Shown: positions 2,667 through 56,522, numbered from the whole stretch's first letter. The stretch: DNA of 57,610 bases, filler included, from Deltaproteobacteria bacterium (GCA_016283195.1; 3 parts of 3 records of this genome joined end to end with filler, not necessarily neighbours in it); one strand, 5' to 3'. The notes: generated from the letters alone by a model not told the origin. Translations and numbers: made by a program.

Positions 2667-5600
2667 TTATTTATTTTTGGCTTCGATGGCTTTTTTGGTT
2701 TCATCGACAATGCCGGCCGCGCTCTTTTTGGTAACCGAGGCTTGGCCCTTGGCTTCCAGTTTAAAGCGCTCGGCTTTGTAATAAACATCAACAGCGTTGT
2801 TGTTTTCGCCGATTAAATTCAGGAAAGTGGCCATATTGATAAACATTTCATGTTCGTGCATCCGGCTTAATACCACGGCTGTAGGGCTGTGCTTGCGCCC
2901 GAATTTAGAGACGCCGTTAACCAGTTCTTTCATGGCTTCGGCGCTGTCGTTGCCACCTTTTTTAGCCCACTTGGCTTGGATTTTATCCATCTCGCGCATG
3001 AAGTTATTGGCATCGCTGATAAGGCCGATATCTTCAGCGATATCCCGGCCATCGGTTACAGCGGCATAATTTCTGGCATGCATGCGTTTAAAGGCGTCAT
3101 CATCGGAGTTTTCGTATTTAAGAATTGAGTAACTGGCCAAAAAGATCATGCAATCATCAGAACCGCTGCTGGGGCTTATTTTGTTGTATTCTTTAAGAAT
3201 TGCCTTGCGATCTTTTTCGGAGCGAGTTTCCCAGTACTTGGCTAAAAGTTTATAGCCCTTGGTAAGAGTGCCGATGGATACTTTGCTATCAGGATAGAGG
3301 TGTTTAAACTCTTTCTCGATCTTCTCTTTGGTGCTCTTAAGGAAAGCGCTGTCGTATTTTTTGGCCAGTTTTAAAGCCTGAGTATCCAGCGGCATAGCCC
3401 CGATAGCGGAGCGATTTTGCTCACCGGGAGGAATGGTCATATCTTCAAAAGCGGCCGTAGTCATTAAGAAAATTTCCCGATTTTTCATCGGTTGCCAATG
3501 CTTTAGCATTTCGGTGAAGGAGCTTAAAGAGCAGCCATATTGGATTTTGCCTTCTCCTTTGCCGTAACCGCTGATGACTTTGCTCTTGCCGTTTTCATCT
3601 CTCGTAATGGTTAAATTGAGTGATTTACAGAAGTTACGCCAATCCGCGGCTTCGTTCTTTTTGGTGGCTCTGTCTTTCATATCAAAAGAGCCTTGGAAGA
3701 AGACATCCACCAGCTCGTTTTTATCGCCGCTGGTTTTGTGCACGGCAAAGGCTTCCCAGTTAAAGGTAAAGCTCTCACCTTTGAAAATGGCATCTTTACC
3801 TTTTTTGGTATAATCTTTGCCATAAGAAGTGCAGGTGAGCAGCTCGCCGGTATCCAGGCGAATTTCAAAGTCGCTGTTGGTTTCTTTGAGCTCACTTTGC
3901 GATAAAAGCTCCAAAACAGAGAGTTTTAAATCGCCTTTTTTGATGGTTATAACGGAATTATCCACCTGTTTGGCTTTTAGCAAGTTAGCCTTCATGGCTG
4001 CTTCCGGTTTATAGAAGCGCACCAAACTGTTGAAGGCGGCCAAATGATCCGGGTTATCCATATTAAAGGGGCCGAAAGTAGCTTTTTCTTTATGCTCTTT
4101 GGCCACGCCGGCTTTGGCGCTAAAGGAGGCATTTAAGTACTCTTTAACCAATTTTTCAAGAGACTTGCAGGCCGCATCGCAGCCTTTTTTGCCGTATTTC
4201 TTGGTTAATTTACTGCCGCCTTCCAGCCAGTCGGTGATGGCGTTATATACACCAAATTCTTTTATCTCGGCACTGATGCCGACAGAAGCTTCCAGCCCCA
4301 TGGCAATAGAAGCTATATCTTCTTGCCAAAAGACTACTTCCGGGCCATTGGCGGTGATAGTAACTGTAGTGCCAAGTACTTTATTTTTTGAAGGATTAAT
4401 GGTGAAACCGGCTTTTAAGCTGGCGGTTAAGCCATCCATCAGCTTAACATCTTTGCCCACATTGGCTTCGCCTTTAATGGAAACGGCACCGGTACCGATA
4501 TGCGTCATGGTGGTGCCGACCGGCAGCTCTTTCCAAACGCTGTCATCGGTGATAGCGAGGCGCAGGGAGAGGGCGGTGGCATCGCCTATGGGGAGGGCGC
4601 CGTCGCCATCGGGAATGGAGATATCCACTTTTCTGGTGCCCAAAACATTCATACCGGCCGAAAGAGCGCCGATATTGCCGATATCCAGTTGGGCCAGCGG
4701 GAAGTCTTTATTGAGGCTAAAGAGGGAGCTAAAGTTATATTTGCCGTCTTTATGCTCGCGCCCGAGGTTAAAAGCCGCACCAAGCGGGGATTCAGTGGCA
4801 TCTACGCCCATCTGGACATTGGATTCGTTCTTCTTGATGAGCTTTTCTTTTTCTGGATTGCGCACATTTAAGGCGGCTATTGCTTCTAAAGCTTTTTCCG
4901 GAGCGCTGTTGTCGTTTATTTGCGCGAGACATTTATCGAGCGCCTTTTGGTGCTCCGGCTTAGAAGGATCAAGCTCATATACATAAATAGTGGTGGTGCT
5001 GTTTTTGAAATCGGCATTAAAGTTTATATCAACAGTTTCAATAACATCGGGGAATTTTACGCCGCTGGCGTTATCTGTTAAGCGGGTTTTGGTAACAGTG
5101 AGCGAGATGGTGCCGTTGTCATTATGTTTAAATTCCAGCTTATGCTCATTGTCCCAGCTGCCTTTAACCGAACCGCTGACAGCATTGTAAGCGCCGCTGC
5201 CGCCGACAGTGTGAACTTTTTTGCTGGTGACTCCGGCCAAATAGCCGGCATCGAGTGCCGGTTTCATGTTGCCCTGGCCGGCAGCGAGGAAGAGCTTGGC
5301 TTGCTTGGGATCGCTAAGATCAAACGGGCCGAAGGAGGTGGATACGGCTTTGTTGCGGCCGGTACTGGCGCTTATAGCCCGGTTTTTGAGACTCTTTTCA
5401 TCTACAATTTCTTTTAATTCTTTGGAAAGTTCGGCGTATTTTTTGTCGCCGAATTTCTTTTTCAGAGCTTTGCCGTCGTTTTGCAGATAATCGGCTACGG
5501 CATCGTAAATACCAAAGGAGGCAATATCTTCGGAGACCTTTAAATCGCTCGCTCTGGTGTGTTTAAAGGAGGCAGCTATATCTTCTTTGCGCTCCTGAAT

Positions 5601-8363
5601 AAGCGTTACAATAGGCCCTTTATCTGTTTGTTCGATATGCACAGTAGAGAGGTAATTGCCACTGGGATCGATAGTCCAAAGAGCTGCTTTTGTTGATTTT
5701 TCGGTAACTTTTTCCGCCGAATCTTTGTGGTTATTGGCGAGAGAAATACCGTGAGTAATATCGGTTGTTGTGCCCTTTGGAGCTGCCTTCCAGGCTTCCA
5801 ATTCCAAATTTGCCAGCTCATTGCTCAAAGTAACAACCCGGGTATTTTTTAATTCGGCACCGGGATCGGGCAGTTTTACTTTGGTAGAGACACTGTGGCC
5901 GGCTGTTAATTTGTCTTTGTCGCCTTCTTCGCCGCCTAAAGTGCCGGTGAGCTTTCTAAGGCCGCTCACAGTGTGCACATCATCTTTAAATTCATGGGCC
6001 AGTTGTAAATCGAGACCCAAGGGGCCTTCAGCCAGATTTACATCTATTTGGCCGGTAATAACCCGGTTTTTGGTTATTGTTTCCGCATCGGGATCGCGGA
6101 CTCCGAGGGCATCTATAGCGGAGAAATCAAGTTCAAAATCGCTGCTGTCGCCATAGCGATTGGCGATAGCCTTTTCCCAGGCCAGGCGGTGGGCCTCTTT
6201 GCTGAGGTCCATTTTGTAAATATTTACTTTGGTTACCCGGCCAGTGGTGCCGCCTTTAACTGCCAAATCTGAATTATCCAGATATTCACCGACAACATCA
6301 TTGCTTCTGGCGCCGGCAGATAATTCCTTAATAGTAGTATCGGTGACCGTGATGGTGAGTTTATCGCCGTCGCGATCCACTTTTACGGTGCGCTTGGTAT
6401 CTTTGCTTCTGGCAATATGGCTTTCGTGATTATCTATATCCAGCGAATGGGTGCGGCCTTTCTTGAGCCCGCCTGTTACCTCCTCCATGAGGCCGAGTTC
6501 CAAAGCCGGAGCCAGATTGAGATCGCCGGTCAGGCGATTAAAAGCATCTTTTTGTTTGGTATCGGCCAGAGCAAAGGGGCCAAAGGTGATTTCGTGCAAG
6601 CCTTCCAGTTCGCGGCCGGCAGAGAGGCGGATATTATAAGCCAGTTGCTCGCCGATAATAGTATCCAGTTCGGCTTTGATTTCGTCAAACTTGCCAGGAT
6701 ATTTGGCTTTTAGAGCTTTGCAATCGTCTTGCAAGTAATCTTCGATAGCTTCATAAAGGCCAAACTCTTTGACCTCGGTGGAAATATTATCGCTTGAAAT
6801 ATTGGTGGCTTTTATCTGGGCTAAAAGGGCCAATTTGTCCTGCTGGATAATTTTTACTTTCGGGCCGTCGGCTGTTTGCGTGACTTCAACGGTAATGGCC
6901 TGAGAGCCGCTGGGATCCAGTTGCCAAGCGCTGCTACCGGTGGTGGTAAGGCCGGCATCGCCGCCATAAGTAAGGGCGAGAGAAGCAGAGACCAAAGAGG
7001 TGAGCTTGGTGCCCTCCGGGGCAGTGCGCCAGGCTTCGGGTTTTAAGCGCGATAAATTAAAAGCCTGAGCCGAAGCTTGTTTTGGGGAAAGTTTGGCTTC
7101 TTTATCCGGCAAAACGAGAACATTGCTACGGGTGGCAGCCAGTTCTTTAAGGGAACTTTCGCCGTTGGCGGTTTTTAAATTAAGCAAACTGGAAATAGTG
7201 TATTTGCCGTCGTCATAAGTGCGGGAAATTTGCAGACCGCCGGCATTGGTACCGTATTCTGCCGAAATATCGAGCTTATCGGAAAATTTTCTCTTTTTGA
7301 TATCGCTGGCTTTGGCTTCATCGGCGCAGCCCAGATTTTTGAGCTCTTTGGTGCTGATACCGGGAATGAGCTTGTGCTTGCCGCCGGTCCAGGGCAGGGC
7401 TTTTTGCATAGCGGCCAGTTGTTTATCATCGTCTAAATTAACATTAAATACTTCGACTGTGGTGCGATCGAGAGATGAATCGCGCTTATAGGTGCCGGCA
7501 ATATTTTCCAAAAGTTCGCCGGTTTTTAAGTCGAGAGCGTGCTTATCTATACGTTGCTTTATAATAGTGAGCTGCACCTGACCGTCTTTGCCCCGCTCCA
7601 TGGTAACGGTGACTTTGGTGCGGCGATCTATTTCAGCGCTCTGATCTTCGGCCGAAAGAGCAATACCGCCGGCTAAAGTAAATGAGGCGGTAACCGCGGC
7701 ACCAAGAGGCAGTTCTTTGGCTCCTTTGGCGGTATAGGGGAGGTCTAAAGTAGTGGATTTTATGCGATCCCAAGTAGTTAAAAGCACCTGCTTGGTGGGC
7801 GTCTTTTTGGGATCTATGGCCATGGGCATTTGTACATCAATACCAATGCCGCCGATAATTTCACCGGATTTAATATAATCAACCGGAGTGGTGGCTGAGG
7901 CTTTCAGCTCCAGATTGATTTTGGAAGTGATGAGCATCGAGCCTTCGTGGGCTTCCATAAAGGCCTTTTGGTTGGCTGTAAGCCCCTTATCGAGGACTTC
8001 GAGATCCACATCGCCTTTTAAATCGAGCTTGTATTTTTCGGCTTCATCCAGCTTGAAAGTATTTTCAAAATCGGTCTTTATCTCGGTTTTGGTAAGGGGA
8101 AGAAGTTCTTTCATCCCCTTGTCCCACAAAGAAGCTATGGCGCTTTTCTTTTTTGGTTTGGCTGCTTTATCGGGTAGAGCTTTATCATCCGGGGTAGCTA
8201 CGGTTTTAGTTTCTCCGGCCGGAGCTGTTTCATACGCATCGCCGGCAGGCTTGGCAGCAGCTTTTGGAGCAGCTTTAGCGGCAGGCGCGGCTGCCGGTTT
8301 ATCATCGGTTTTAATTTCAGGATTATAGCCAATATTTCCCGCTGTACGAACTCCACTAACCAT
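2667..8363 (-). CDS. Giant (~1898 aa) hypothetical protein with three ~417-aa internal repeats; candidate secreted effector
   Basis: Long ORF; ATG 8363 has RBS AAAGGGAG; Ala/Pro/Lys-rich disordered N-terminus and no Sec signal; repeated motifs (E/S)FG(L/I/V)Y.A(I/V).D(Y/W)L and (T/S)FGPF about 1250 nt apart. Confidence 0.9.
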   Translation of the reverse strand: MVSGVRTAGNIGYNPEIKTDDKPAAAPAAKAAPKAAAKPAGDAYETAPAGETKTVATPDDKALPDKAAKPKKKSAIASLWDKGMKELLPLTKTEIKTDFENTFKLDEAEKYKLDLKGDVDLEVLDKGLTANQKAFMEAHEGSMLITSKINLELKASATTPVDYIKSGEIIGGIGIDVQMPMAIDPKKTPTKQVLLTTWDRIKSTTLDLPYTAKGAKELPLGAAVTASFTLAGGIALSAEDQSAEIDRRTKVTVTMERGKDGQVQLTIIKQRIDKHALDLKTGELLENIAGTYKRDSSLDRTTVEVFNVNLDDDKQLAAMQKALPWTGGKHKLIPGISTKELKNLGCADEAKASDIKKRKFSDKLDISAEYGTNAGGLQISRTYDDGKYTISSLLNLKTANGESSLKELAATRSNVLVLPDKEAKLSPKQASAQAFNLSRLKPEAWRTAPEGTKLTSLVSASLALTYGGDAGLTTTGSSAWQLDPSGSQAITVEVTQTADGPKVKIIQQDKLALLAQIKATNISSDNISTEVKEFGLYEAIEDYLQDDCKALKAKYPGKFDEIKAELDTIIGEQLAYNIRLSAGRELEGLHEITFGPFALADTKQKDAFNRLTGDLNLAPALELGLMEEVTGGLKKGRTHSLDIDNHESHIARSKDTKRTVKVDRDGDKLTITVTDTTIKELSAGARSNDVVGEYLDNSDLAVKGGTTGRVTKVNIYKMDLSKEAHRLAWEKAIANRYGDSSDFELDFSAIDALGVRDPDAETITKNRVITGQIDVNLAEGPLGLDLQLAHEFKDDVHTVSGLRKLTGTLGGEEGDKDKLTAGHSVSTKVKLPDPGAELKNTRVVTLSNELANLELEAWKAAPKGTTTDITHGISLANNHKDSAEKVTEKSTKAALWTIDPSGNYLSTVHIEQTDKGPIVTLIQERKEDIAASFKHTRASDLKVSEDIASFGIYDAVADYLQNDGKALKKKFGDKKYAELSKELKEIVDEKSLKNRAISASTGRNKAVSTSFGPFDLSDPKQAKLFLAAGQGNMKPALDAGYLAGVTSKKVHTVGGSGAYNAVSGSVKGSWDNEHKLEFKHNDNGTISLTVTKTRLTDNASGVKFPDVIETVDINFNADFKNSTTTIYVYELDPSKPEHQKALDKCLAQINDNSAPEKALEAIAALNVRNPEKEKLIKKNESNVQMGVDATESPLGAAFNLGREHKDGKYNFSSLFSLNKDFPLAQLDIGNIGALSAGMNVLGTRKVDISIPDGDGALPIGDATALSLRLAITDDSVWKELPVGTTMTHIGTGAVSIKGEANVGKDVKLMDGLTASLKAGFTINPSKNKVLGTTVTITANGPEVVFWQEDIASIAMGLEASVGISAEIKEFGVYNAITDWLEGGSKLTKKYGKKGCDAACKSLEKLVKEYLNASFSAKAGVAKEHKEKATFGPFNMDNPDHLAAFNSLVRFYKPEAAMKANLLKAKQVDNSVITIKKGDLKLSVLELLSQSELKETNSDFEIRLDTGELLTCTSYGKDYTKKGKDAIFKGESFTFNWEAFAVHKTSGDKNELVDVFFQGSFDMKDRATKKNEAADWRNFCKSLNLTITRDENGKSKVISGYGKGEGKIQYGCSLSSFTEMLKHWQPMKNREIFLMTTAAFEDMTIPPGEQNRSAIGAMPLDTQALKLAKKYDSAFLKSTKEKIEKEFKHLYPDSKVSIGTLTKGYKLLAKYWETRSEKDRKAILKEYNKISPSSGSDDCMIFLASYSILKYENSDDDAFKRMHARNYAAVTDGRDIAEDIGLISDANNFMREMDKIQAKWAKKGGNDSAEAMKELVNGVSKFGRKHSPTAVVLSRMHEHEMFINMATFLNLIGENNNAVDVYYKAERFKLEAKGQASVTKKSAAGIVDETKKAIEAKNK

Positions 8364-8398
8364 AGCATCTCCCTTTGGGCACAAAAAGGCCGAGGCTG

Positions 8399-19226: not shown

Positions 19227-19326
19227 NNNNNNNNNNNNNNNNNNNNNNNNNNNNNNNNNNNNNNNNNNNNTTAATTAATTAANNNNNNNNNNNNNNNNNN
19301 NNNNNNNNNNNNNNNNNNNNNNNNNN
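19227..19326. other. Artificial contig junction
   Basis: N runs flanking the six-frame stop linker TTAATTAATTAA. Confidence 0.99.
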
Positions 19327-38999: not shown

Positions 39000-40122
39000 A
39001 TGGCAGAGCCTAGCAAAAAGGAATTATCAGAAACCGATATTCGCACAATTTATATTACTCCGGCCATCACAAACGCCGGCTGGGTTATGGGCAGTCAGGT
39101 TAGAGAAGAAGAATCGTTTACCGCTGGTCGCATTTTTGTTAAGGGCAAGTTGGCAGTACGTGGTCAACGAAAAAGAGCAGACTATGTTCTTTATTATAAA
39201 CCCAATATGCCTGTGGCTGTCGTAGAAGCTAAGGACAACAACCATTATATAAGTGATGGTATTCAGCAAGCTCTTTCCTATGCCGAAACTTTGGATGTTC
39301 CTCTCGCTATTAGCAGTAATGGCGATGGTTTCTTTATTCGCTACCGGGGAAATTCTGGCCCCAAAAATGAAAAGGGGGAGCCCATTGCTGTAGAAGAGCG
39401 CGCTTTGGAACACTTTCCAACCCGTGAAGAAATCTGGAATTGTTACAAACGATATAAAGGGCTCGATACACCAGAAACGGAATCTATTGCTACGCAAGAT
39501 TATTTTTATGACAGCGAGGGCTATAAACCGCGTTATTACCAGCAAATTGCCATCAATCGCACGGTAGAAGCAATTGCCAAAGGACAAAAGCGCATTCTTT
39601 TGGTGATGGCAACAGGAACCGGCAAAACTTTTACCGCTTTCCAGATTATTTGGCGCTTATGGAAAAGCGGCTGGACAAAGAATAAGGCGAGTGGCAAGAC
39701 CCCACGCATTTTATTCCTGGCCGATCGCGAAAACTTAATTACCCAAACCAAACGCGGCGATTTCAAGCATTTTAAAGATAAGATGACTATCGTTCGCCAC
39801 AAACAGATAGATAAAGCCTTTGAAATATACCTTGCTCTTTATCAGGGGCTTACCAATTATGATGAAGATGCTGATGCTTATAGGGAATTTTCGCCGGATT
39901 TTTTCGACTTGGTTGTGGTGGATGAGTGTCATCGTGGCAGCGCCGCCGAAAATAGTGCCTGGCGAAAAATTTTGGATTACTTTAAAAGCGCTACGCATAT
40001 CGGTATGACTGCAACCCCGAAGGAAACAAAAGAAATCTCTTCAACTGAGTATTTTGGCGATCCTATATATACTTATTCGTTAAAGCAGGGAATCGATGCC
40101 GGATTCCTCGCTCCTTACAAAG
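39000..40122 (+). CDS. hsdR: Type I restriction enzyme R subunit (EcoEI-like), 3' truncated
   Basis: ADY...VVEAK nuclease motif, RYYQ, ATGTGKT, DECH, TATP, YSLKQGI..GFL. Confidence 0.93.
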
Positions 40123-40222
40123 NNNNNNNNNNNNNNNNNNNNNNNNNNNNNNNNNNNNNNNNNNNNTTAATTAATTAANNNNNNNNNNNNNNNNNNNNNN
40201 NNNNNNNNNNNNNNNNNNNNNN
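40123..40222. other. Artificial contig junction
   Basis: N runs flanking TTAATTAATTAA. Confidence 0.99.
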
Positions 40223-42602: not shown

Positions 42603-43475
42603 TCAATCTCTAACTTTACAAAGAGCGGCCACGGCCTCGGGAATCGGCATCAAAAAGCCGTTCTTTATAAATTGCACCTCGGTCAACATATCGGTACACA
42701 CTGTGCCGGCGGCATCTATAATACGCTGATCAAGAATAAAGGTAGTCTCGTTAAAGGGCCGATATCCCACCAAAACTTCCAACTTATCACCAATATGACT
42801 GGCATTCATATAACGATTTATCTGGCGTTTTATTTTCAGGGGATTATTAGCGAGCCACAAAGATAACCTACTTGAATCTATAGCTTTTTTCAATGATTCA
42901 GCAAACGCTCTTTCGCAAAAATTAAAATAAGCCACATGATAAGTAATGCCCTGGGCATCGGTGTTTTCGTAATAAACCCGCACCGGCATTTTAAATGAAT
43001 AATGCTCACTCTTACCAAAAGGCACCGGCACCAGCATGGGCTCAAAGTGGGGCAAAGTTTCCCGGCTGGCCGGCAACTCCTCAGGGACCGGCACCAGTTC
43101 GCGCTCCATATTTAAAAACAGTAGCTCCACAATGGCTTCGGCCAGGAGGTCACCGTTTAAATTTTTCACTTGCTGCAAAAAAGCGGCGCGGTGCGAGGAA
43201 GTTTTATGGAGCGAAGAAATAATATTGAGCTCCTCCCCCATGTGGCCGGCAGCTAAAAAACGGGCCGATATTTTATAAACATTTATTATATATTTTGTAA
43301 GCCAGCTATCATTTAAGCCCAGAGAAAGGCAAATTTTTTCAATAGCTTCGAAGCGGCCTCTATCCATAAAACGCAGGTAGGCCTGGGGGGTGACTTCACA
43401 GTTATGATCGACATCATAACCATAAACCGTCACCGGCAGACAAAAAACTTGCCCAGCTGAGAGCTCGCGCTCCAT
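42603..43475 (-). CDS. Tandem hot-dog-fold acyl thioesterase (two YbgC/4HBT-like domains)
   Basis: VTVYGYDVDHN...Y..F..RGR and VRVYYENTDAQGITYH..YF.F.ERA; TAATG coupling to the PKS stop. Confidence 0.85.
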   Translation of the reverse strand: MERELSAGQVFCLPVTVYGYDVDHNCEVTPQAYLRFMDRGRFEAIEKICLSLGLNDSWLTKYIINVYKISARFLAAGHMGEELNIISSLHKTSSHRAAFLQQVKNLNGDLLAEAIVELLFLNMERELVPVPEELPASRETLPHFEPMLVPVPFGKSEHYSFKMPVRVYYENTDAQGITYHVAYFNFCERAFAESLKKAIDSSRLSLWLANNPLKIKRQINRYMNASHIGDKLEVLVGYRPFNETTFILDQRIIDAAGTVCTDMLTEVQFIKNGFLMPIPEAVAALCKVRD

Positions 43476-46400
43476 TATTCAGCCTGCCCAATGGTTTTTA
43501 AAACCAATTTGTCGATAGTAAAGAGCAAGCGGCCGCCAGGTTCGCGCACTGCCACATCCATAGTGGCTCCATCGATATCCATTTGATAAAGCTTTAAAAT
43601 ACAAATAGCTTCTTTAGTACTAACCGGCGCATGGCTTTGCATCAGACCAAATTCATAAGGCACAGCCATCACATTTTTAACTTGCATTACCCAAGCTGCC
43701 GCCGCTTGTACCGCCATATCGGCCATTACCGGGTCAATCACCATTTCAGAGGGCAGATTGATAAGAGCACGCGCCGATTCGGTTAGCACCATAAGAGCAA
43801 GGCAACTATCATTATCAAAAGTAAGCGCCTTGATTCCCCGGAAGATGGGGCCGGTTTTAAGCGATGAAGAGAAGTGACTGTCGAGCAATTGATAGAAGGT
43901 CACTTCAGCACTTTGTGCTTCTTTTGCGAGCTGTTTTATCTCTTTTGGGAGCGCTTTTAACTGGCTGGCCGGCGTATTTTCCTCTCTTGGCAGCAATTTG
44001 GCGCTGGCATAAGAAAGGTTTAAAAGCGCCTTTTCGGGCAAATTGGGCCGCTCTTTCGGCAACAGCACCAATTCATCACCATTACGCACCACCTCTACGG
44101 CAAAGTTTTCCTCGCGCACCCAAAGTGGGCGGCGAATATGAATATTGCCTAAAACAAAGCCAGTTTTTTTAGCTGCTTCGGCAAAAATCTCGGCAATAAA
44201 GGTGCCCGGGGCCACCGGTTTTAGCTGCACGCGGTGTTGCTCCAGATAAACGTCCTCGGAGCTCACAAAATTGGCCACGGCATTGCCATCGCCGGGCTGA
44301 GCTTCTAAGAGCGCACTCCGCGGACGTGCCGAAGAGGCAAGGGGCAAAATCGGCCGCGTATCGGCAAAAGCCGAAGCGGCATTTAAGGCGGATAGCACCT
44401 GCCAATTGCTGCCGGTAACGCCATTCATATAAAGAGCCACACCGGAGGGCACATCAAGCGGCACGAGGCCGGATTCGGCAAAACGTTTGGCCTCGGCAGC
44501 GGTCACCATGCCGGTGCCTACCCAGGCTGTCCATTGAATGGAGCGCGCTGCCAAATTGGGATAACGGGCCGCCAGCCATCTTGTAAAGCTATCGAGTAAA
44601 TCGTTAGAGAGCGCATAATCGGTTTGGCCGGCATTGCCAAAGAGACCGGCAATGGAGCTAAATACCGAAAGTAATTTAAGCTTACCGATATCCAAAGTGG
44701 CTATAATATCCAGCATGGGGCTAAGTTTGGTGCGCAGTGTAGCGGTGATTTGCTCATCGCTCAAATCGGCCAAAAGGTGCGATTTTTGGACTCCGGCGCC
44801 GTGGACAATACCCTTTATGCCGTACTTAGCATCAATTTCTTTAAGGAAAGCGGTAAATTCTACGGAATCAGTCACATCAATACGCCGATATTCGGCGCTG
44901 ATACCCAAAGCGGCTGCCCGCTCCAAATTGTTATTTACTTCCCACTCGGTGCGCATAGCAGCCGAACGCCGCTTGGCTTCACCCAGGTTAGCCACCTCTT
45001 TGTTGCGCACCAGATTCATTTCAAAATTGCGCAAATAAGTATCTAAATTTTCTTTAGGCGTAGAAAGCCAGCTTTCACCGCGTAAAAGCTTGGTACGACC
45101 AGTTAAAACCAGGCGACAACCGGTAGCTTCGGCCAGTGCCAAAACACATTCAAAAACAATGCCGCGCGCGCCGCCGGTAACCACCAAAGTATCATCGCGC
45201 TCTAAAATGGGCCGATATTCACGGCTGGCACCAAGCTTTGTAAGCACAGGTTTTACCAGGCCGTATTGGCTATAACCAAGCTCAAAGCTCTTGCTTTCAT
45301 AAGGCAAGACGCTCTTTAGGGCATCTATCCAGTTATCGCCGCCATCTAAAAGCAGGAAGGAAGAAGTGGTGATTTCGCGGCGCAGACAACGCACAAAGCC
45401 GGCCGGGAAAGAGGCCACAAGAGCATCATAAGCTCCTTCGCTACCAAAAGCACCGTCCATGGCGATGGGCACAATAACTCGCCTGGCTTGTTTTTGCAGC
45501 TCCGGCGCCAAGGCTTTAAAGACATCATAAATAGTGCTTGTTTCCTTTAAAATGGCTGTAACCAGCTCCTGGCCCTGTCCTTTTTGGCTATAAAGATCGC
45601 GATGAGCCGCATAAATGATAGTATCGTGATCTTTAACCATAGCGCCAAGCTGAACAGAACTATTATTTAATAATTCCGCTGTCTTAATAACTGTGGTTTT
45701 GATCTTTTGCGCCTCTATTTGCGAGACAAATTTACCAACCCATGGTTTTCTCGTGCTCACAATAATAAGCACTTTACGGCACTTTTGCGGAATTAAATCA
45801 CCGGGCTCCACCGGCACAGCGGTGCTCACAAAAAGCTGATTAGGACTTTTAAGCAGAGCTTCTTTATGGCGCTCCGGCAAAGTAAAGGGCTCAGCACTTA
45901 GCGGTTTTGCTCTATCGGCCAGAGGAGCGACCAGCGGCCTTGCGGCAGCAGAAGCCGGAGCAGTTTCAGCAGCAGCTCCGCGGCCGGCCTTTTCGAGGCC
46001 TGCGGCCATGGCCGCTATGGTAGCTTTGCCCTCGGGGCGCACTGTGGGATCCAGCTGGTAATCTTTGACAAGGCCCATCCATATTTCGGCTCTTTGCACG
46101 GAATCTATACCAAGATCGGCCTCGAGTTCCAAATTATCTTCCAGCATTTCCAGCGGATAGCCGGTGCTCTCCACTAAGCGCTCTTTGACTAGCGAGGCCC
46201 ACTCGGCTGCACTCTTAGCACTTGAGGCGCTCTCCGCCGCCGCTATAGTAGTATCTGGGGCGGCGGCGGAAATGGCGGCAGCCGGAGCTATAGCTTGAGC
46301 AGCAGCGCTACCAGCCGCAGCTTGTCCGGCGGCGGCGCCGACATTAGCCGCCTGGGTGGCGCCGCCGCGGCCGGCCTTTTCAAGGCCTTCGGCCATGGCC

Positions 46401-49400
46401 GCTATAGTGGCTTTGCCCTCCGGGCGCACTGTGGGATCCAGCTGATAATCTTTGACGAGACCCATCCATATTTCGGCTCTTTGCACGGAATCTATGCCGA
46501 GATCGGCCTCGAGTTCCAAATTATCTTCCAGCATTTCCAGCGGATAGCCGGTGCTCTCCACTAAGCGCTCTTTGACAAGCGTTGCCCACTCGGCTGCACT
46601 CTTAGCACTTGAGGCGCCCTCCGCCGCCGCTATAGTAGTATCTGGGGCGGCGGCGGAAGCAGGAGCTAAAGCCACCGGTTTGGCAGCAAAATTATCGGCT
46701 CTACTTTCCGGCATAGCTGCCTGACTAATAGCAACTGTATTCTGAGCACTCTGTCCCATAGGCAATGAAGCCCGCGCTGCCGGAGCGGCAGGAGCTTCAA
46801 GAGCAGCTAATTCACTAATATTTACAAATTGTTGCAAATAGCGCTGGCGCACTTCTTCCAATAAATGAAGCACCGCCGGTTCGCTGGCCCGCATATATTC
46901 CAAAAATTCGCTACTGAACATGCCAGGCAAATTCTTGCGATCGGCCGCCGAAGAGACATGGCCATAAACCATCATAATAGCCAAAGCGCGATTGAATATC
47001 TCGCGATCACCCAATTTGGGATGAATAGTGGGGAAAGCTATATGCTCACGGCCTTCCAAAATAGAATCCACCATTTTGCTGAGCGACCAACCGGGGCCAA
47101 CTTCTATATAATGGTGAGCGCCATTATCATATAACTTATTGATATCACGCACTAAATTAATCGGTGTAACCAGTTGTGAGCCCAAATGGCGAGCCAGTGA
47201 CTCACTATTCAAATTATCGGGCTCAATAAAGGCACCAGTAACTGTTGACAAAATCGGCACCAGCGGCTTTTCGCAAGGGAGGCGCGCAATATCGGCTTCA
47301 AAAGCAGCACGCACCGGCGCCATATAGGGCGAATGGAAAGCGGAAGCAATGGGGAGCAATTTGACATCAGCGCCCATAGCTTCGGCCTCGGGAATAATCT
47401 TTTTAATAGCCGCCAGATCACCGGCTACAATAAATCTTGTAGGCGCATTAATATTGGTAAGATATACTTTATCACCGGCTTTAGCCAAAATGGCATCGCG
47501 AACTTCCGCTGGGCATATCAGGCTAAGCATACCCAATTCTGGCCCACGTTTAGTAATCTCTTCGGTGGCTTTGATGCGGGCCACAATGGCTTTTAAAGCG
47601 GTTTCAAGAGACCAAACACCGGCAAAAGTCAAAGCCGAAATCTCACCAAAACTCTGGCCGATAAGATATCTGGGCTTTACTCCCATGGCCGTAAGCACCT
47701 GGGCCATGCCCTGCTCCACGGCAAAGAGCGAAAGCTGAGCGCCCACTAAAGAGCCCAGTTCTTTAACAATTTGCGGGTCATTGGGGTTACCGTAAATATG
47801 GGCCAAAAGGTCAAAACCAAATTCGGCCATAGTGAGCTCTTGGACTTCATCCAGCACAGCCCTAAATATTGGATTTTCTTCATAAAGGAAGCGCCCCATA
47901 CCAATATAATGCGTCCCTTGGCCGGGAAAACAGAAGGTAAGAGGCTCGCGGCTGTCATCATAAAGTGCCGCCATATATACGCCTTGGGCGGCCAGTGGTT
48001 TTAAATCGGCACCGGCCATGAGCATGCGGATCACCGTCATAAGTTTACTGCGCAATTCGTCTTGATCTTTAAAGCTGACAGCCAAACGGTGATTGGCCTT
48101 TAAACCTTCGGAGACAAAGAGCGGAATGGGTGATTTTTGCATGGCGTGGCCGATAGCCAGCGGCATATCTTCAAGGCGCTCGGAAACAGCCAAAAAGACA
48201 TTATTACCAGCAATATCATCGGCACGCATAGAGCTGCCCTGACGCTTGGTATAAGCTATAGCCGGAGTAGCGGAAGCAGCCTTTAAAAGAGCCAGTTTTC
48301 CGGCACCGGCAGGCGCTGCTGCCTCATTATTTTTAGGAGCCTCTTTTTTGCTCTCGTTTAGAGCTTCCGGAGTGCTGACAATAACTACATATTCCGCACC
48401 GCCAAGCCCCAGGCTGGTAACCGCACCGGAAGTCATTTTAGCTGACATATCAGTGGTTTGATTTATCGGCAAAGCTAGTTCTTTAGTGGCGCTTAGCTCC
48501 GGGCGCAGCTTTTCCAAATTGCGAATTCCCGGCGCTTTATGATTCTTTAAAGCTAGGACAGTGCTTAAAAGCGAAGTAGCGCCAGAACCGCCGTAAAGAT
48601 GGCCGACATGCGATTTAACCGCTGTGATATAAACAGGTTCATCGGACTTTTGCGGGCGGAATTTTTGGGCAATAACTTTAGCTTCCACAATATCGGAAAC
48701 TTTGTTACCACTGCCATGGGTCTCCACTACGCCAATAGTACTTGGATCAACATGGGCCTTTAAAAGGGCTTTATCGGCAGCATAACCAAGAGCAGCCTCG
48801 CTGGGAGCCACCAAACTCTTGCCATATACCTCGGAAGCTCCGCCAACATTGCGAATAACAGCCAGAATTTCATCACCATCGCGCTTGGCATCAGCCAGGC
48901 GTTTTAAGAGAAAAAAGACGCCGCCTTCACTGATTAAAAAGCCGTCGCCCCGCTCATCATAAGGGCGGGCCACCTCTTTGGCTACAGCCCCCAGAGCGCA
49001 AACTCCGCAAGTAAAGCTAAAGCTGGTCTGGCGATTAAGGCCGCCACTCAAAACCATATCAACATCGCCGAACATGAGCTGATACATGGCCGGAACCAAA
49101 GCAGCTACGCCCGATGAACAAGCAGTATCTATGGTAAAATTGGGGCCGATGCAGTTGAGCTTATTAGCCACCCGGCCGGCGGTAATATTGGCCATCCAAC
49201 CAGGAAGGGTATGCTCGGTTACGCGCGGGCTTTCGTCATGCACCTCTTTTTTAGCTACGTTAAGAGCCTTTTCCAAAAGATCGGCGCTGATTTCTCCGGC
49301 AGTGGCAGTATGGCTCAAAACATAATTATATTCGTCAGATACCATTGGCCGCTGAATGGTTGGATAATAATCATCATGCATAGAGCCCAGGCAGACAGCC

Positions 49401-51178
49401 ACATTCTTTTGCGCTTTAAATTCCAGCCCTTTCTGCTCAAAGAGGCGATCGGCCAAATCCAGAGCTAAAAACTGGGTGGGTGAAATTTGGTCAAAAGATT
49501 TGGGCAGCATCTTATAGCGCAGGCAATCCACCTTGTAATCATCAAGAGTAGCTACCATTTTGGTAGTAATACGCTCATTTTCCGGCCCGGCGTCCACATG
49601 CTCGCTCCAGGAGAGCTTTTTGGCATCAATCGGCTTAAAGACATCTTTGCCAGAAGATATATTTTGCCAAAAAGTATCGGGAGTTACCGCTCCTGGCAGG
49701 CGCACTGAGGTGCCCACAATAGCCATTTCGCGCGCTACTTCACGGCGGGGCGGCGGCATAGTATAACTTTCGCGCTGCTCTAAAATAGTATGGTAATTAG
49801 CTCCGCCAAAACCGCTGCTGGTAACAGCGGCATAGCGGCTGCCATCTTCCTGCGGCTGCCAGGGCAAGAGCTCGGTGGGCACTTTTAGCTTATCACAAGG
49901 CCGGGTAACCCGTGGCGTGAGCTCTTTAAAACGCGGCAAATGGGGCACTTTACCATGCTCCATAGCGAGAACCGCTTTAATAAGCCCGGCCACACCAGCC
50001 GCTGCTTTAAGGTGACCAATTTGCGCCTTAACGCTACCTAAATAGAGAGGATTACTGGATTTTCTCTTTTCATCGCGGCCATAAGCCATAGAGATGGCAT
50101 CATATTCATTAGCATCGCCGACAACAGTAGAAGTGGCGTGAGCTTCGATATATTGCACTTGATGCGGCTCAACTTCGGCATGGCGAAGAGCAGCCTTTAA
50201 AGCCCGCGCCCGCCCTTCGGCAGAAGGAGCATATATAGCTTGGCCGGAACCATCGCTGGAGGAACCGATGCCGCGAATAACAGCATGAATTTTGTTGCCG
50301 TCTCTTAGGGCATCTTCCAGGCGCTTTAAAACCACAATACCGCAGCCTTCACCGATAACAAGGCCGTTGGCCGAGGCGTCAAAGGGGTTGCTCCAGCCAT
50401 TGGGGCTAAGACCGCCAACTTTAGAAAAGCCAATATAAATCGCCGGGTTAGTGCCAAGATCCGTACCACCGGTAACCGCTATGTTGGCATCGCCGGCCAT
50501 AAGAGCCTGGCAGGCAATATCCAGAGCCACAAAAGATGAACCGCAAGCGGCATCCACCGTCATATTAAAGCCGTGAATACCAAAAACCTGCGCCACACGG
50601 TTAGATACCGATGAAGGCACCGCCCCAACCGCCGCTATGGAAGAGTTCCAAACGTGGCCGTGGCTCTTGATCCCAGCGGTAAAATCATCGAAAAGGCGGT
50701 TAATAATATGTTCCGGAACACCGCCGGCTCTAAGTTCACGACTTACTTTATTAAAATAGTGCTGCCGGTCCAAAAAGGCCGTGGCATGAGCAAAGCCGTC
50801 AACGCCGCTACTGCCGATAACGGTAACGCCCTCTTTCAGCTCCGGAGAAAAGAAGTCCAGACCGGCATCTCTTAAAGCCTCTTTGGTGGCTTCCAAAGTA
50901 ATGGGCTGCGCCGGATCCACTTCCTGCATAGCTCTTGGCGGCAAGCGGTATTCCTTATAAGGAAATTCAAAACCGGAAATAAAAGCCCCCATCATGGTGT
51001 AAGTTTTACCTTCCGCCTTCTGATCGGGGTTATAATAGTGCCGCATATGCCAAATAGACTCTGGCATTTCCTTTATATATGAATCACCGCTGACTATATT
51101 TTCCCAATATTTACGGACATTATTGGCCTCAGGCACAACACAGCCCATACCTATAATGGCGATATCGTAACGCGCCAT
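43475..51178 (-). CDS. Type I polyketide/fatty-acid synthase, probably iterative: KS-KS-AT-ACP-ACP-KR-DH
   Basis: KS1 DAACGSS/EAHATS/GHL; KS2 DTACSSG/ETHGSG/GHL; AT FPGQG, GQSFG, AFHS; two LGIDS ACPs; KR TGGARGI, HGAG, YALSN; DH HRVQLKPVAP and DMAVQ. Confidence 0.93.
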   Translation of the reverse strand: MARYDIAIIGMGCVVPEANNVRKYWENIVSGDSYIKEMPESIWHMRHYYNPDQKAEGKTYTMMGAFISGFEFPYKEYRLPPRAMQEVDPAQPITLEATKEALRDAGLDFFSPELKEGVTVIGSSGVDGFAHATAFLDRQHYFNKVSRELRAGGVPEHIINRLFDDFTAGIKSHGHVWNSSIAAVGAVPSSVSNRVAQVFGIHGFNMTVDAACGSSFVALDIACQALMAGDANIAVTGGTDLGTNPAIYIGFSKVGGLSPNGWSNPFDASANGLVIGEGCGIVVLKRLEDALRDGNKIHAVIRGIGSSSDGSGQAIYAPSAEGRARALKAALRHAEVEPHQVQYIEAHATSTVVGDANEYDAISMAYGRDEKRKSSNPLYLGSVKAQIGHLKAAAGVAGLIKAVLAMEHGKVPHLPRFKELTPRVTRPCDKLKVPTELLPWQPQEDGSRYAAVTSSGFGGANYHTILEQRESYTMPPPRREVAREMAIVGTSVRLPGAVTPDTFWQNISSGKDVFKPIDAKKLSWSEHVDAGPENERITTKMVATLDDYKVDCLRYKMLPKSFDQISPTQFLALDLADRLFEQKGLEFKAQKNVAVCLGSMHDDYYPTIQRPMVSDEYNYVLSHTATAGEISADLLEKALNVAKKEVHDESPRVTEHTLPGWMANITAGRVANKLNCIGPNFTIDTACSSGVAALVPAMYQLMFGDVDMVLSGGLNRQTSFSFTCGVCALGAVAKEVARPYDERGDGFLISEGGVFFLLKRLADAKRDGDEILAVIRNVGGASEVYGKSLVAPSEAALGYAADKALLKAHVDPSTIGVVETHGSGNKVSDIVEAKVIAQKFRPQKSDEPVYITAVKSHVGHLYGGSGATSLLSTVLALKNHKAPGIRNLEKLRPELSATKELALPINQTTDMSAKMTSGAVTSLGLGGAEYVVIVSTPEALNESKKEAPKNNEAAAPAGAGKLALLKAASATPAIAYTKRQGSSMRADDIAGNNVFLAVSERLEDMPLAIGHAMQKSPIPLFVSEGLKANHRLAVSFKDQDELRSKLMTVIRMLMAGADLKPLAAQGVYMAALYDDSREPLTFCFPGQGTHYIGMGRFLYEENPIFRAVLDEVQELTMAEFGFDLLAHIYGNPNDPQIVKELGSLVGAQLSLFAVEQGMAQVLTAMGVKPRYLIGQSFGEISALTFAGVWSLETALKAIVARIKATEEITKRGPELGMLSLICPAEVRDAILAKAGDKVYLTNINAPTRFIVAGDLAAIKKIIPEAEAMGADVKLLPIASAFHSPYMAPVRAAFEADIARLPCEKPLVPILSTVTGAFIEPDNLNSESLARHLGSQLVTPINLVRDINKLYDNGAHHYIEVGPGWSLSKMVDSILEGREHIAFPTIHPKLGDREIFNRALAIMMVYGHVSSAADRKNLPGMFSSEFLEYMRASEPAVLHLLEEVRQRYLQQFVNISELAALEAPAAPAARASLPMGQSAQNTVAISQAAMPESRADNFAAKPVALAPASAAAPDTTIAAAEGASSAKSAAEWATLVKERLVESTGYPLEMLEDNLELEADLGIDSVQRAEIWMGLVKDYQLDPTVRPEGKATIAAMAEGLEKAGRGGATQAANVGAAAGQAAAGSAAAQAIAPAAAISAAAPDTTIAAAESASSAKSAAEWASLVKERLVESTGYPLEMLEDNLELEADLGIDSVQRAEIWMGLVKDYQLDPTVRPEGKATIAAMAAGLEKAGRGAAAETAPASAAARPLVAPLADRAKPLSAEPFTLPERHKEALLKSPNQLFVSTAVPVEPGDLIPQKCRKVLIIVSTRKPWVGKFVSQIEAQKIKTTVIKTAELLNNSSVQLGAMVKDHDTIIYAAHRDLYSQKGQGQELVTAILKETSTIYDVFKALAPELQKQARRVIVPIAMDGAFGSEGAYDALVASFPAGFVRCLRREITTSSFLLLDGGDNWIDALKSVLPYESKSFELGYSQYGLVKPVLTKLGASREYRPILERDDTLVVTGGARGIVFECVLALAEATGCRLVLTGRTKLLRGESWLSTPKENLDTYLRNFEMNLVRNKEVANLGEAKRRSAAMRTEWEVNNNLERAAALGISAEYRRIDVTDSVEFTAFLKEIDAKYGIKGIVHGAGVQKSHLLADLSDEQITATLRTKLSPMLDIIATLDIGKLKLLSVFSSIAGLFGNAGQTDYALSNDLLDSFTRWLAARYPNLAARSIQWTAWVGTGMVTAAEAKRFAESGLVPLDVPSGVALYMNGVTGSNWQVLSALNAASAFADTRPILPLASSARPRSALLEAQPGDGNAVANFVSSEDVYLEQHRVQLKPVAPGTFIAEIFAEAAKKTGFVLGNIHIRRPLWVREENFAVEVVRNGDELVLLPKERPNLPEKALLNLSYASAKLLPREENTPASQLKALPKEIKQLAKEAQSAEVTFYQLLDSHFSSSLKTGPIFRGIKALTFDNDSCLALMVLTESARALINLPSEMVIDPVMADMAVQAAAAWVMQVKNVMAVPYEFGLMQSHAPVSTKEAICILKLYQMDIDGATMDVAVREPGGRLLFTIDKLVLKTIGQAE
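45978..46658. repeat. Intragenic 294-bp direct repeat encoding the two ACP domains (45978-46271 and 46365-46658)
   Basis: Manual alignment gives about 14 mismatches in 294 nt; offset 387 nt (in frame). Confidence 0.92.
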
Positions 51179-55088: not shown

Positions 55089-56522
55089 ATGAGCGATTTT
55101 GTTTGCAAACGTTATAGTGCCGATGAAGCAAAGAGCCTTTTTGCCAGGCAAAAAGCGCGGCGCTGGCAAGTGGCGCAGCGCGGCGCCAAAGAGCGCGTGG
55201 CAGTGCTCAAAAAACTCCTAAATGTTATAAAAGAGGAGACTCCGGCTCTTTGCGCAGCCATAAATGCCGATTTTGGCAAACATCCGGACGAAAGCCGCCT
55301 CACCGAAGTTCTCGCCACTCAGGAAGAGTTACATTTTACCATAAAACATTTAGCACACTGGATGCGCCCTTTGCATGTGCCAACTCCGCTGGTGCTCTTT
55401 GGCAGCAAAAGCCATGTGCAATACGAGCCCAAGGGCAATGTGCTCATCTTTTCGCCTTGGAATTATCCTTTTAATTTGGCCATAAATCCCCTCATCGCCG
55501 CTGTTTCCGCCGGCAACTGCGTAATGTTGCGCCCCTCGGAAAAGAGCCAGGAAACAGCTAAAATCATTCAAAAAATAGTTTCCAAAGTCTTTTCGGAAGA
55601 TGAAGTGGCGGTGGTACTCGGTGACCGGGAAACAGCCGATGCCCTTTTGGAGCTACCCTTTGATCACTTCTTTTTCACCGGCAGCCCCAAAGTTGGACAA
55701 AAAGTGATGACGGCGGCGGCCAAGCATTTTGCCTCCGTCACTCTGGAGCTGGGCGGCAAGTCGCCAGTTATTGTGGATAAATCGGCTAATTTAGAGCAGG
55801 CGGCCAGGCGCCTCACCTGGGGGAAGTTTATCAATGCCGGGCAAACCTGCGTAGCACCGGATTATCTCTTATTGGACGAAGCGGCAGCCGATAAATTTTT
55901 GCCACTTTTAAAGCAGAATATTGCCCGCTCCTATGGCGAAAGCGCCGAAGATCAGCTCAAAAGCCCATCACTTGCCAGCTTAGTTAATGTAGCCAGCGGC
56001 GAGCGCCTTTATAAGTTAATAAATGATAGCGTAGCCGCCGGCGCCAGGATTTACTGCGGCGGCGAGTTCACCAGTGATAAGCGCCGCCTAGCGCCTACTA
56101 TTGTCAGCGGCATTAATCCCAATATGGCACTTATGAGCGAAGAGATCTTTGGGCCCATTCTGCCGGTTATTACTTATAAAGACATTTCCGAGGCTATTAA
56201 TATTATAGAGAGCCGCCCCAAGCCGCTGGCTTTATATCTCTTTGCCCATGACAAAAACGTGATTAAACGCATTTACAGCGAAACAACTTCCGGCGGCAGT
56301 TGCTTAAATAACGCCATTTTGCACCTTGTAAACAGCCACATGCCCTTTGGCGGCGTGGGCATGAGCGGCCTGGGCCACTACCATGGGGAATATGGCTTTA
56401 GAAATATGTCACACGAGCGCGCTATTCTTAGCCAGGGCTCTTTCAATGCCATTGATTTTATCGCCCCGCCCTACACCGAGAAAAAATCACGCCTCATTGA
56501 TTTCATGATGAAAATTTTCTAG
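55089..56522 (+). CDS. Aldehyde dehydrogenase (ALDH3 / fatty or coniferyl aldehyde class)
   Basis: PWNYP, FTGS, LELGGKSP, NAGQTCVAPDY, EEIFGP, PFGGVG.SG.G.YHG. Confidence 0.93.
   Translation: MSDFVCKRYSADEAKSLFARQKARRWQVAQRGAKERVAVLKKLLNVIKEETPALCAAINADFGKHPDESRLTEVLATQEELHFTIKHLAHWMRPLHVPTPLVLFGSKSHVQYEPKGNVLIFSPWNYPFNLAINPLIAAVSAGNCVMLRPSEKSQETAKIIQKIVSKVFSEDEVAVVLGDRETADALLELPFDHFFFTGSPKVGQKVMTAAAKHFASVTLELGGKSPVIVDKSANLEQAARRLTWGKFINAGQTCVAPDYLLLDEAAADKFLPLLKQNIARSYGESAEDQLKSPSLASLVNVASGERLYKLINDSVAAGARIYCGGEFTSDKRRLAPTIVSGINPNMALMSEEIFGPILPVITYKDISEAINIIESRPKPLALYLFAHDKNVIKRIYSETTSGGSCLNNAILHLVNSHMPFGGVGMSGLGHYHGEYGFRNMSHERAILSQGSFNAIDFIAPPYTEKKSRLIDFMMKIF

Follow-up and report, generated by a model that had tools for sequence, protein, structure and literature searches.

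A window of 57,610 nucleotides (the whole stretch of DNA analysed here) from the bin Deltaproteobacteria bacterium GCA_016283195.1 (genome G000) carries a translationally coupled gene pair: a type I synthase with two ketosynthase (KS) domains in one polypeptide, followed by a hot-dog thioesterase. Comparison with related loci and with the rest of the genome leads us to place this pair, with moderate confidence, at the heart of a secondary-lipid pathway of the polyunsaturated fatty acid (PUFA) synthase type that is conserved but uncharacterised. The first gene would encode its core synthase and the second a thioesterase for off-loading or editing, and the pathway would supply an unsaturated acyl chain for an exported membrane lipid. 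Orthologues of the partner genes are kept in G000 and one partner, a protein of about 294 residues, follows the synthase across genomes, which argues that the pair is the visible core of a dispersed pathway and not a minimal system. The two genes are as follows.

43475..51178, minus strand: iterative type I synthase KS1-KS2-AT-ACP-ACP-KR-DH (AT, acyltransferase; ACP, acyl carrier protein; KR, ketoreductase; DH, dehydratase), 2567 aa (P0001); from the open reading frame (ORF), its translation, Pfam and a self-BLAST domain map.
42603..43475, minus strand: tandem hot-dog thioesterase, 290 aa; from the ORF, Pfam and NCBIfam.

A conserved gene set around related synthases

A scan of one genome per species recovered 41 loci of this family (L003-L043), all in bins and with 43–56% identity. 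By their NCBI labels they belong to Myxococcota (22), Pseudomonadota (8), Bacteroidota (3), Spirochaetota (2) and Sumerlaeota (1), with five unlabelled; several of these labels look unreliable, especially "uncultured Enterobacterales". These relatives keep a fixed gene set around the synthase–thioesterase pair. In all 21 loci that have DNA beside a complete synthase, a CrtI-family flavoprotein accompanies the thioesterase. The two are fused in 19 cases, 18 of them recognised by BLAST as a single protein of 636–866 aa and one (L033) by Pfam, while L042 has the two as separate genes, of 336 and 549 aa, in the same cluster. In L035 a putative fusion, an 842-aa ORF, stands at this position; an apparent triple fusion at this locus was rejected, as it came from masking by an antisense ORF and the actual arrangement is the usual three-gene order. 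Synthase, flavoprotein and thioesterase are joined in one protein in P0013 (3559 aa).

The other partners were counted over 42 loci (the 41 relatives plus the window's own contig), many of which are cut by contig ends: a HAD hydrolase immediately upstream of the synthase (19 loci), a 292–298-aa protein with no family match, henceforth the 294-aa protein (13 loci), a PlsC-type acyltransferase (12) and an HpnN-type MMPL/RND pump (8). The structure model of the 294-aa protein (pLDDT 90.6) finds its best folds in LpxM, the lipid A secondary acyltransferase (5knk, E 1.5e-10, TMq 0.65), and in mycobacterial PatA (TMt 0.73), so that we model it as a putative LpxM/PatA-type acyltransferase. The closest solved relatives of the flavoprotein are the gamma-carotene desaturase 4rep and the phytoene desaturase CrtI 4dgk; its best NCBIfam models, crtI_fam and carotenoid isomerase, both stay under cut-off. 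ORF clustering and Pfam revealed no FabA or enoyl reductase (ER) gene and no partner PfaC or PfaD in the conserved neighbourhood of the related loci, and no enediyne cassette genes were seen either there or beside the window pair.

Partner genes elsewhere in the genome

G000 is a 190-contig metagenome bin of 3.2 Mb with 4.18% contamination. The window joins three of its contigs, C186 (1-19226), C188 (19327-40122) and C189 (40223-57610), through spacers at 19227-19326 and 40123-40222, each composed of 44 N, 12 bases and 44 N, so the real flanking DNA of the synthase is C189, 17,388 bases. Pfam and NCBIfam scans of this 17.4-kb contig found no ER, PfaB/C, phosphopantetheinyl transferase (PPTase) or tailoring gene. 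The initial annotation, made from the sequence, had said as much of the flanking DNA, and within C189 it was right; as a statement about the system it is not supported, given that the partners cluster with the synthase in relatives and are present on other contigs here.

Searching G000 by tblastn with the related proteins located all five partner genes, each off C189. PlsC (58% identity) and the HAD hydrolase (39%) are adjacent and in the usual order on C177. A CrtI-family flavoprotein of 627 aa, with 33–37% identity over about 500 residues, is on C91; an LpxM/PatA-like protein of the 294-aa type (52%) is on C167, and an HpnN-like pump (42% over 770 residues) on C73. No flavoprotein fused or adjacent to the thioesterase was found in the window, where C189 has the thioesterase alone. 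The same annotation had proposed a "two-gene", "minimal" system; this is not supported in view of the flavoprotein in 21 of 21 informative loci and of the five partners present elsewhere in the genome. In a fragmented bin, a gene pair that passes for a minimal cluster can belong to a pathway whose other genes lie scattered.

Among five synthase-holding genomes lacking a seen copy of the 294-aa protein beside the synthase, four match it at 361–476 bits, and one of these matches shares a contig with the synthase. Its matches in 40 unrelated genomes that lack the synthase never exceed 41 bits (three weak hits). As judged from these scores, the LpxM/PatA-like protein appears to track the synthase across genomes.

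The proposal to look through the genome for pfaD and a PPTase bore fruit. One PPTase of Sfp-type size, a 270-aa ORF, lies on C37, and C57 (L001 4369-18707) carries a complete pfa cluster consisting of a PfaD-like ER (599 bits, over cut-off), KS-AT-ACPn, KR-DH and KS-CLF-AT-FabA-FabA (CLF, chain length factor), in which the PfaC-like protein has two PF07977 FabA-type domains. The cluster resembles the split pfa layout termed Type D in PMC3098273. Because the C57 cluster has its own KS, AT, ACP, KR and DH, the window synthase is not its missing part, nor an orphan pfaA.

Further lipid- or polyketide-related genes were seen on other contigs. C91 (L084 10027-10842) has a PfaD-family fragment of 272 aa (221 bits, model residues 4-188), cut by the contig end and 2 kb from the CrtI-family gene, with a rubredoxin-type pyridine nucleotide oxidoreductase between the two. 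A second lipid locus on C96 (L087 9762-16441) has a CrtI-like flavoprotein (497 aa) adjoining a 1286-aa fusion of MMPL pump, PlsC and methyltransferase, followed by a phosphatidylserine decarboxylase. On C181 a KS-ACP protein precedes a 2293-aa nonribosomal peptide synthetase, C137 holds a type II-like set of GT2, FabG and two KS-like genes, and C160 encodes a 717-aa fused KS/Ketoacyl-synt_2 protein.

Domains and conserved residues of the synthase

Domain boundaries were cut by self-BLAST, that is, by the similarity of the domains among themselves, and the domains are listed below in protein order.

49769..51178, minus strand: KS1, aa 1-470, C212/H347/H389; Pfam, self-BLAST and alignment; forms its own clade.
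48374..49738, minus strand: KS2, aa 481-935, C687/H821/H860 plus K855; alignment, KS tree and didomain model.
46994..47953, minus strand: AT, aa 1076-1395, GQSFGE (S1176), R1201, AFH(S) 1280-1283; Pfam and invariant residues.
45977..46603, minus strand: two tandem ACPs, aa 1526-1605 and 1655-1734, DLGIDS motif; self-BLAST and DNA repeat.
44504..45208, minus strand: KR, aa 1991-2225, with K2151, S2175, Y2188 and N2192 invariant; Pfam, self-BLAST and alignment.
43478..44293, minus strand: DH of the polyketide synthase type, aa 2296-2567, with H2315, P2324, G2325, D2487 and Q2491 invariant; Pfam and alignment.

This is the order KS-KS-AT-ACP-ACP-KR-DH that had first been read from the sequence in one polypeptide, and ORF, Pfam and self-BLAST agree on it; the KS1 and KS2 positions given then are borne out by the domain map. 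Pfam finds two ketoacyl-synt N+C pairs, Acyl_transf_1 (1081-1389), PP-binding, KR (1997-2219) and PKS_DH_N plus PS-DH (2303-2566), and no enoyl reductase, FabA (PF07977) or PPTase (PF01648) domain in the synthase. Among curated NCBIfam models the protein stays under every cut-off: PKS_plus_SDR scores 808 bits against a cut-off of 1740, and TIGR02813 (omega_3_PfaA) 784.7 against 1010.1. These results support an ER-free iterative type I synthase coupled to a hot-dog thioesterase. They also uphold the earlier statement that the layout is neither PfaA, PfaC nor the enediyne polyketide synthase (PKSE), with TIGR02813 under its cut-off and no PPTase or FabA domain present.

A search over 5.8 billion proteins returned about 50 full-length homologues (2332–3559 aa, 43–56% identity, same Pfam content). 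A profile search with the KS-KS alignment (1.84 billion representatives) was dominated by giant multi-KS synthases, 8 of the best 150 matches being single-stretch didomain matches, and so yielded no usable estimate of family size. All the full-length homologues are uncharacterised; they come from metagenome bins and none has a functional name. The Cys-His-His sets of KS1 and KS2, six residues in all, are invariant in 49 of 49 full-length homologues, as is the AT Ser. In a 41-row alignment K855 of KS2, the KR and DH sets, the Ser of the ACP motif DLGxDS, and R1201 and AFH of the AT are all kept. The residues conserved in KS, AT, KR, DH and ACP are those with catalytic roles in these domains, and the AT signature (GQSFGE, R1201, AFH(S)) is presumably of the malonyl type. 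Both KS domains thus look catalytic from their conserved residues, as the initial annotation had held in noting that each retains Cys-His-His.

That the double KS might be an assembly artefact, a chimera of two synthase genes within a metagenome bin, had been raised as a possible refutation of the architecture. The fragmentation and contamination of the bin speak for such an error. The public contigs placed on the gene are 151–570 bases long, at shares of at most 0.26 and from animal gut metagenomes, and none spans the KS1–KS2 junction at 49,730-49,780. Against it, KS1 and KS2 share 28% protein identity, so there is no DNA repeat able to create a duplication or to mislead an assembler; the frame is open over 2567 codons; the KS1 and KS2 trees give congruent clades; and the order KS-KS-AT-ACPn-KR-DH recurs in 49 full-length proteins from many independent assemblies. 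A chimera recurring in this manner is so improbable that we give the idea next to no weight.

The number of ACPs is another matter. The region contains a 294-nt direct repeat with 95% identical copies at a spacing of 387 nt, found by repeat search, while TRF called no tandem repeat. A contig of run X7 has a joint going back 386 bases in this region, 46663 being joined to 46278, and near 46744-46782 another public contig departs by an insertion of 3 bases and a deletion of 9. Relatives carry 2–5 ACPs. The count of two may therefore be under-assembled and the true number possibly three, and the repeat number at 45977-46663 may vary or be collapsed.

The two ketosynthases as one predicted pseudo-dimer

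In a search against solved structures, synthase residues 5-880 proved colinear with residues 3-856 of 6riw_A, at 23% identity. Modelled with AlphaFold2 from 23 homologues, residues 1-935 reach a mean pLDDT of 91.4 and a pTM of 0.94, and the best Foldseek match of the model is again 6riw, "PfaC Keto synthase-Chain length factor" (E 9e-62, TMq 0.81, TMt 0.82, 961 columns); the remaining listed matches have TMq of 0.43 or less and cover a single KS. KS1 and KS2 are accordingly predicted to form one intramolecular KS-CLF-like pseudo-dimer and not two separate units. In a tree of 58 KS domains the KS1 and KS2 of this family fall in separate clades with 100% support each, and the sister group of the KS2 clade (97%) is made up of the second KS-like domains of three longer synthases, P0106, P0108 and P0121, which have lost their His residues. 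The two domains are anciently diverged. On the didomain model KS2 would sit in the chain-length-factor position, yet it keeps a full Cys-His-His(-Lys) set under long-term selection. The idea that two KS domains divide the labour, voiced when the sequence was first read, is plausible in a refined form, in which the two would be active sites of one KS-CLF-like pseudo-dimer.

Some bins holding the synthase (L026, L037, L038, L039, L040 and L041) also encode free-standing KS-KS proteins of ~1000 aa that are 50–53% identical to residues 1-1000. Their contexts are unrelated (histidine kinases, a GT4 glycosyltransferase, a methyltransferase, a PilZ protein). Matching proteins with AT-ACPn-KR-DH only also exist (P0062-P0064).

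The coupled thioesterase

The synthase stop and the thioesterase start overlap as TAATG, sharing base 43475, and Pfam finds two 4HBT_2 stretches in the 290-aa product; the coupling to a hot-dog thioesterase noticed at first reading is thereby confirmed. The protein passes the YbgC/FadM model TIGR00051 (72.6 bits, cut-off 68.7) and falls short of the equivalog thio_ybgC (103 bits, cut-off 141). Its matches in the PDB are to YbgC, and its N-terminal half matches the pfa-linked "ORF6 thioesterase" 3r87. Of 20 aligned proteins, 19 carry the YbgC-type motif YYE(D/N)TD...YH, whose Asp is catalytic, in their C-terminal half, where the window protein reads YYENTD...YH; the N-terminal half is degenerate. 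The enzyme combines one catalytic-looking half with one degenerate half. The window thioesterase corresponds to the C-terminal 275 residues of the flavoprotein–thioesterase fusions of 770–866 aa in relatives and aligns with residues 554-828 of the one in L022, so by alignment it would be the release half without the flavoprotein.

Proposed pathway and alternatives

In the pathway that we favour, a malonyl-specific AT would load the tandem ACPs, activated by the Sfp-type PPTase of C37. The KS1/KS2 pseudo-dimer would extend the chain iteratively, with a probable split of chain lengths or steps between its two active sites, and each cycle would end, after KR and DH, with a 2-enoyl unit. As the synthase lacks an ER, the chain would remain polyunsaturated and polyene-like unless a partner reduces it. 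The CrtI-family flavoprotein might then desaturate, isomerise or saturate double bonds of this long unsaturated chain, and the thioesterase would release or edit it. Two acyltransferases, of the PlsC and LpxM/PatA types, would join with the HAD hydrolase in putting the chain into a glycero- or glycolipid, and the HpnN-like RND pump would carry this lipid to the outer membrane. The chain may be a conjugated polyene, a skipped polyene or reduced.

Several observations weigh against this pathway. The partner genes of G000 lie among housekeeping genes, so what ties them to the synthase is orthology to relatives with clustered genes and not local context. Compared with the fused forms, the flavoprotein of C91 has just 33–37% identity, and C96 carries another CrtI-like gene. 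One of the five synthase holders mentioned above, G042, a genome that may be incomplete, gave no match to the 294-aa protein. The predicted pseudo-dimer may lean on PfaC-like structures that AlphaFold2 has learned. An ER in trans (the PfaD of C57, the PfaD-like fragment of C91 or a FabI/K) could saturate the chain. A thioesterase and ACP-dependent acyltransferases are partly redundant, which the pathway model does not explain, and what the flavoprotein, each KS and the thioesterase (release or editing) do is inferred.

Were the pair self-sufficient in the manner of a PKSE, releasing a free linear conjugated polyene or polyenoic acid without more processing, one would expect what C189 displays: KR and DH without an ER, a translationally coupled thioesterase gene, a pair that is intact with all catalytic residues present, and no partner gene on 17.4 kb. 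We nevertheless consider this unlikely, since every one of the 21 informative loci adds a CrtI-family flavoprotein and most add acyltransferases, HAD hydrolase and pump, orthologues of all five partners are kept in a 3.2-Mb genome, the 294-aa acyltransferase-like protein tracks the synthase, and two KS, tandem ACPs and the lack of a C-terminal PPTase are unlike PKSE. A free conjugated polyene may all the same be the product. A somewhat smaller chance attaches to a special long saturated or hydroxylated chain that the LpxM/PatA-like enzyme would pass from ACP to a glycolipid such as lipid A, with reduction in trans and a thioesterase that only edits, by analogy with the rhizobial very-long-chain fatty acid system AcpXL/FabF1XL/FabF2XL/LpxXL. 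Two KS with dedicated ACPs, the LpxM/PatA fold of the 294-aa protein and its tight co-occurrence with the synthase, and an exporter of the hopanoid/sterol-transporter type would all suit such a chain. Yet neither the synthase nor the conserved set has an ER, and a CrtI-family enzyme with solved relatives acting on carotenoid polyenes (4rep, 4dgk) fits an unsaturated chain better.

Finally, the synthase could be an accessory module of the PUFA pathway of C57, borrowing its PfaD ER and FabA-type dehydratases to make an ordinary long-chain PUFA. The initial annotation had named pfaBCD genes elsewhere, completing an ordinary PUFA pathway, as something that would overturn its proposal, and this anticipation came half true: a pfa cluster exists, but it is complete in itself. 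The cluster, with a PfaD of 599 bits, KS-AT-ACPn, KR-DH and KS-CLF-AT-FabA2, invites the connection, and so do the PfaD-like fragment at the end of C91, 2 kb from a CrtI-like gene, the resemblance of the KS-KS part to PfaC KS-CLF and the match of the N-terminal half of the thioesterase to 3r87. We judge an accessory role improbable all told, because C57 has every domain itself, in what resembles the split Type D layout (PMC3098273), because no FabA or ER gene lies in the conserved neighbourhood, and because PfaD is over cut-off in only one of five other synthase-holding genomes, which may be incomplete.

Returning to the dispersed pathway, a bolder version of it, which we offer tentatively and think rather doubtful, is a new class of envelope lipid. 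Its polyketide polyene acyl chain would come from a pseudo-dimer with two active KS, with CrtI-family tailoring tied to the release domain, anchoring by the LpxM/PatA-like and PlsC-like enzymes and export by the HpnN-like pump. In effect, uncultured anaerobes of several phyla would build from malonyl units a pigment or membrane modulator resembling carotenoids.

Neighbouring genes and the remainder of the window

Animal gut metagenomes from several studies contain near-identical fragments of G000 at a low share. The one-genome-per-species set contained no genome of the same phylum; all 40 listed relatives are marked "same domain" only. On C189 the pair is followed downstream by a HEAT-repeat protein and ComF (Pfam/NCBIfam) and preceded upstream by a TonB-dependent receptor, an unknown protein, a DnaJ-domain protein, an aldehyde dehydrogenase and a pilin. 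ORF clustering across loci found no counterpart of these neighbours recurring beside related synthases, and the HEAT-repeat, ComF and TonB receptor genes were accordingly set aside as unrelated. The aldehyde dehydrogenase (55089-56522) did cluster with genes near two related loci, yet it is 25% identical to the copy in L011 and was rejected as a member of the system. A promoter and terminator scan gave no signal usefully above shuffled sequences.

Elsewhere in the window, an ORF at 39000-40178, the N-terminal part of a type I restriction R subunit, enters the spacer and is cut by the contig end. A 1905-aa ORF lies at 2667-8384 on the minus strand of C186, and there are several more large ORFs in the first two contigs.

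Comparison with known systems

The nearest structural likeness is to the KS-CLF of PfaC (6riw), which also has two thiolase-fold domains per chain, colinear with ours and with the same predicted pseudo-dimer geometry. The CLF half of PfaC lacks the catalytic Cys, whereas the second KS here keeps Cys-His-His and is thus no Cys-less CLF; and whereas PfaC continues with AT and tandem FabA dehydratases, the didomain here is followed by AT-ACPn-KR-DH. This back half, AT-tandem ACP-KR-PS-DH, is in turn the layout of PfaA, and TIGR02813 is among the best NCBIfam models for the protein. PfaA, however, has a single N-terminal KS before MAT-ACPn-KR-DH, an order otherwise shared, and the conserved set described here comes without partner PfaC, PfaD or FabA domains.

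With the enediyne PKSE, which is KS-AT-ACP-KR-DH-PPTase with a hot-dog thioesterase, the synthase shares an iterative character, KR and DH without ER and a coupled hot-dog thioesterase of the 4HBT type. It differs in having two KS, two or more ACPs and no integrated PPTase domain, and in a thioesterase that is tandem hot-dog and, in relatives, usually fused to the flavoprotein. Aryl-polyene, xanthomonadin and flexirubin clusters are type II systems of dissociated enzymes, use an aryl starter and lack a CrtI-family flavoprotein; they resemble the present set in combining a KS/KR/DH polyene system with a thioesterase, lipid acyltransferases and an MMPL/RND exporter to give an outer-membrane polyene lipid, whereas here the synthase is a single type I polypeptide with an AT. 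Closer in domain order are P0076, P0098, P0106, P0108 and P0121 (the last three of the Desulfoluna type), which have two N-terminal KS-like domains before AT-ACPn-KR. They are 24–39% identical, longer and with extra domains, the His residues of the second domain are lost in P0106, P0108 and P0121, and all five are uncharacterised as far as the literature was searched.

The full-text literature searched, in which few subscription journals are covered, describes neither a KS-KS-AT-ACPn-KR-DH synthase in which both KS are active nor a CrtI–thioesterase fusion beside a synthase. The layout is likewise absent from the available part of the text on 20 pfa-like cluster types in the 2011 census (PMC3098273), where hglC is given as KS-CLF-AT on a separate gene.

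If the reading proposed here is true, a second active site with its full equipment can occupy the CLF position in KS-CLF pairs, and the long-debated division of labour between paired ketosynthases would become testable within one polypeptide. The recurrent flavoprotein–thioesterase fusion would tie polyketide chain building to carotenoid-type flavin chemistry, for which we found no precedent, and the product would be an envelope lipid not yet described, from uncultured bins labelled Myxococcota, Bacteroidota, Spirochaetota and Sumerlaeota and from the gut organism G000. Set against PfaA, PfaC, PKSE and the aryl-polyene clusters, the parts of the system are all of known kinds; their combination, and a seemingly active "CLF", are new as far as could be seen in the literature searched.

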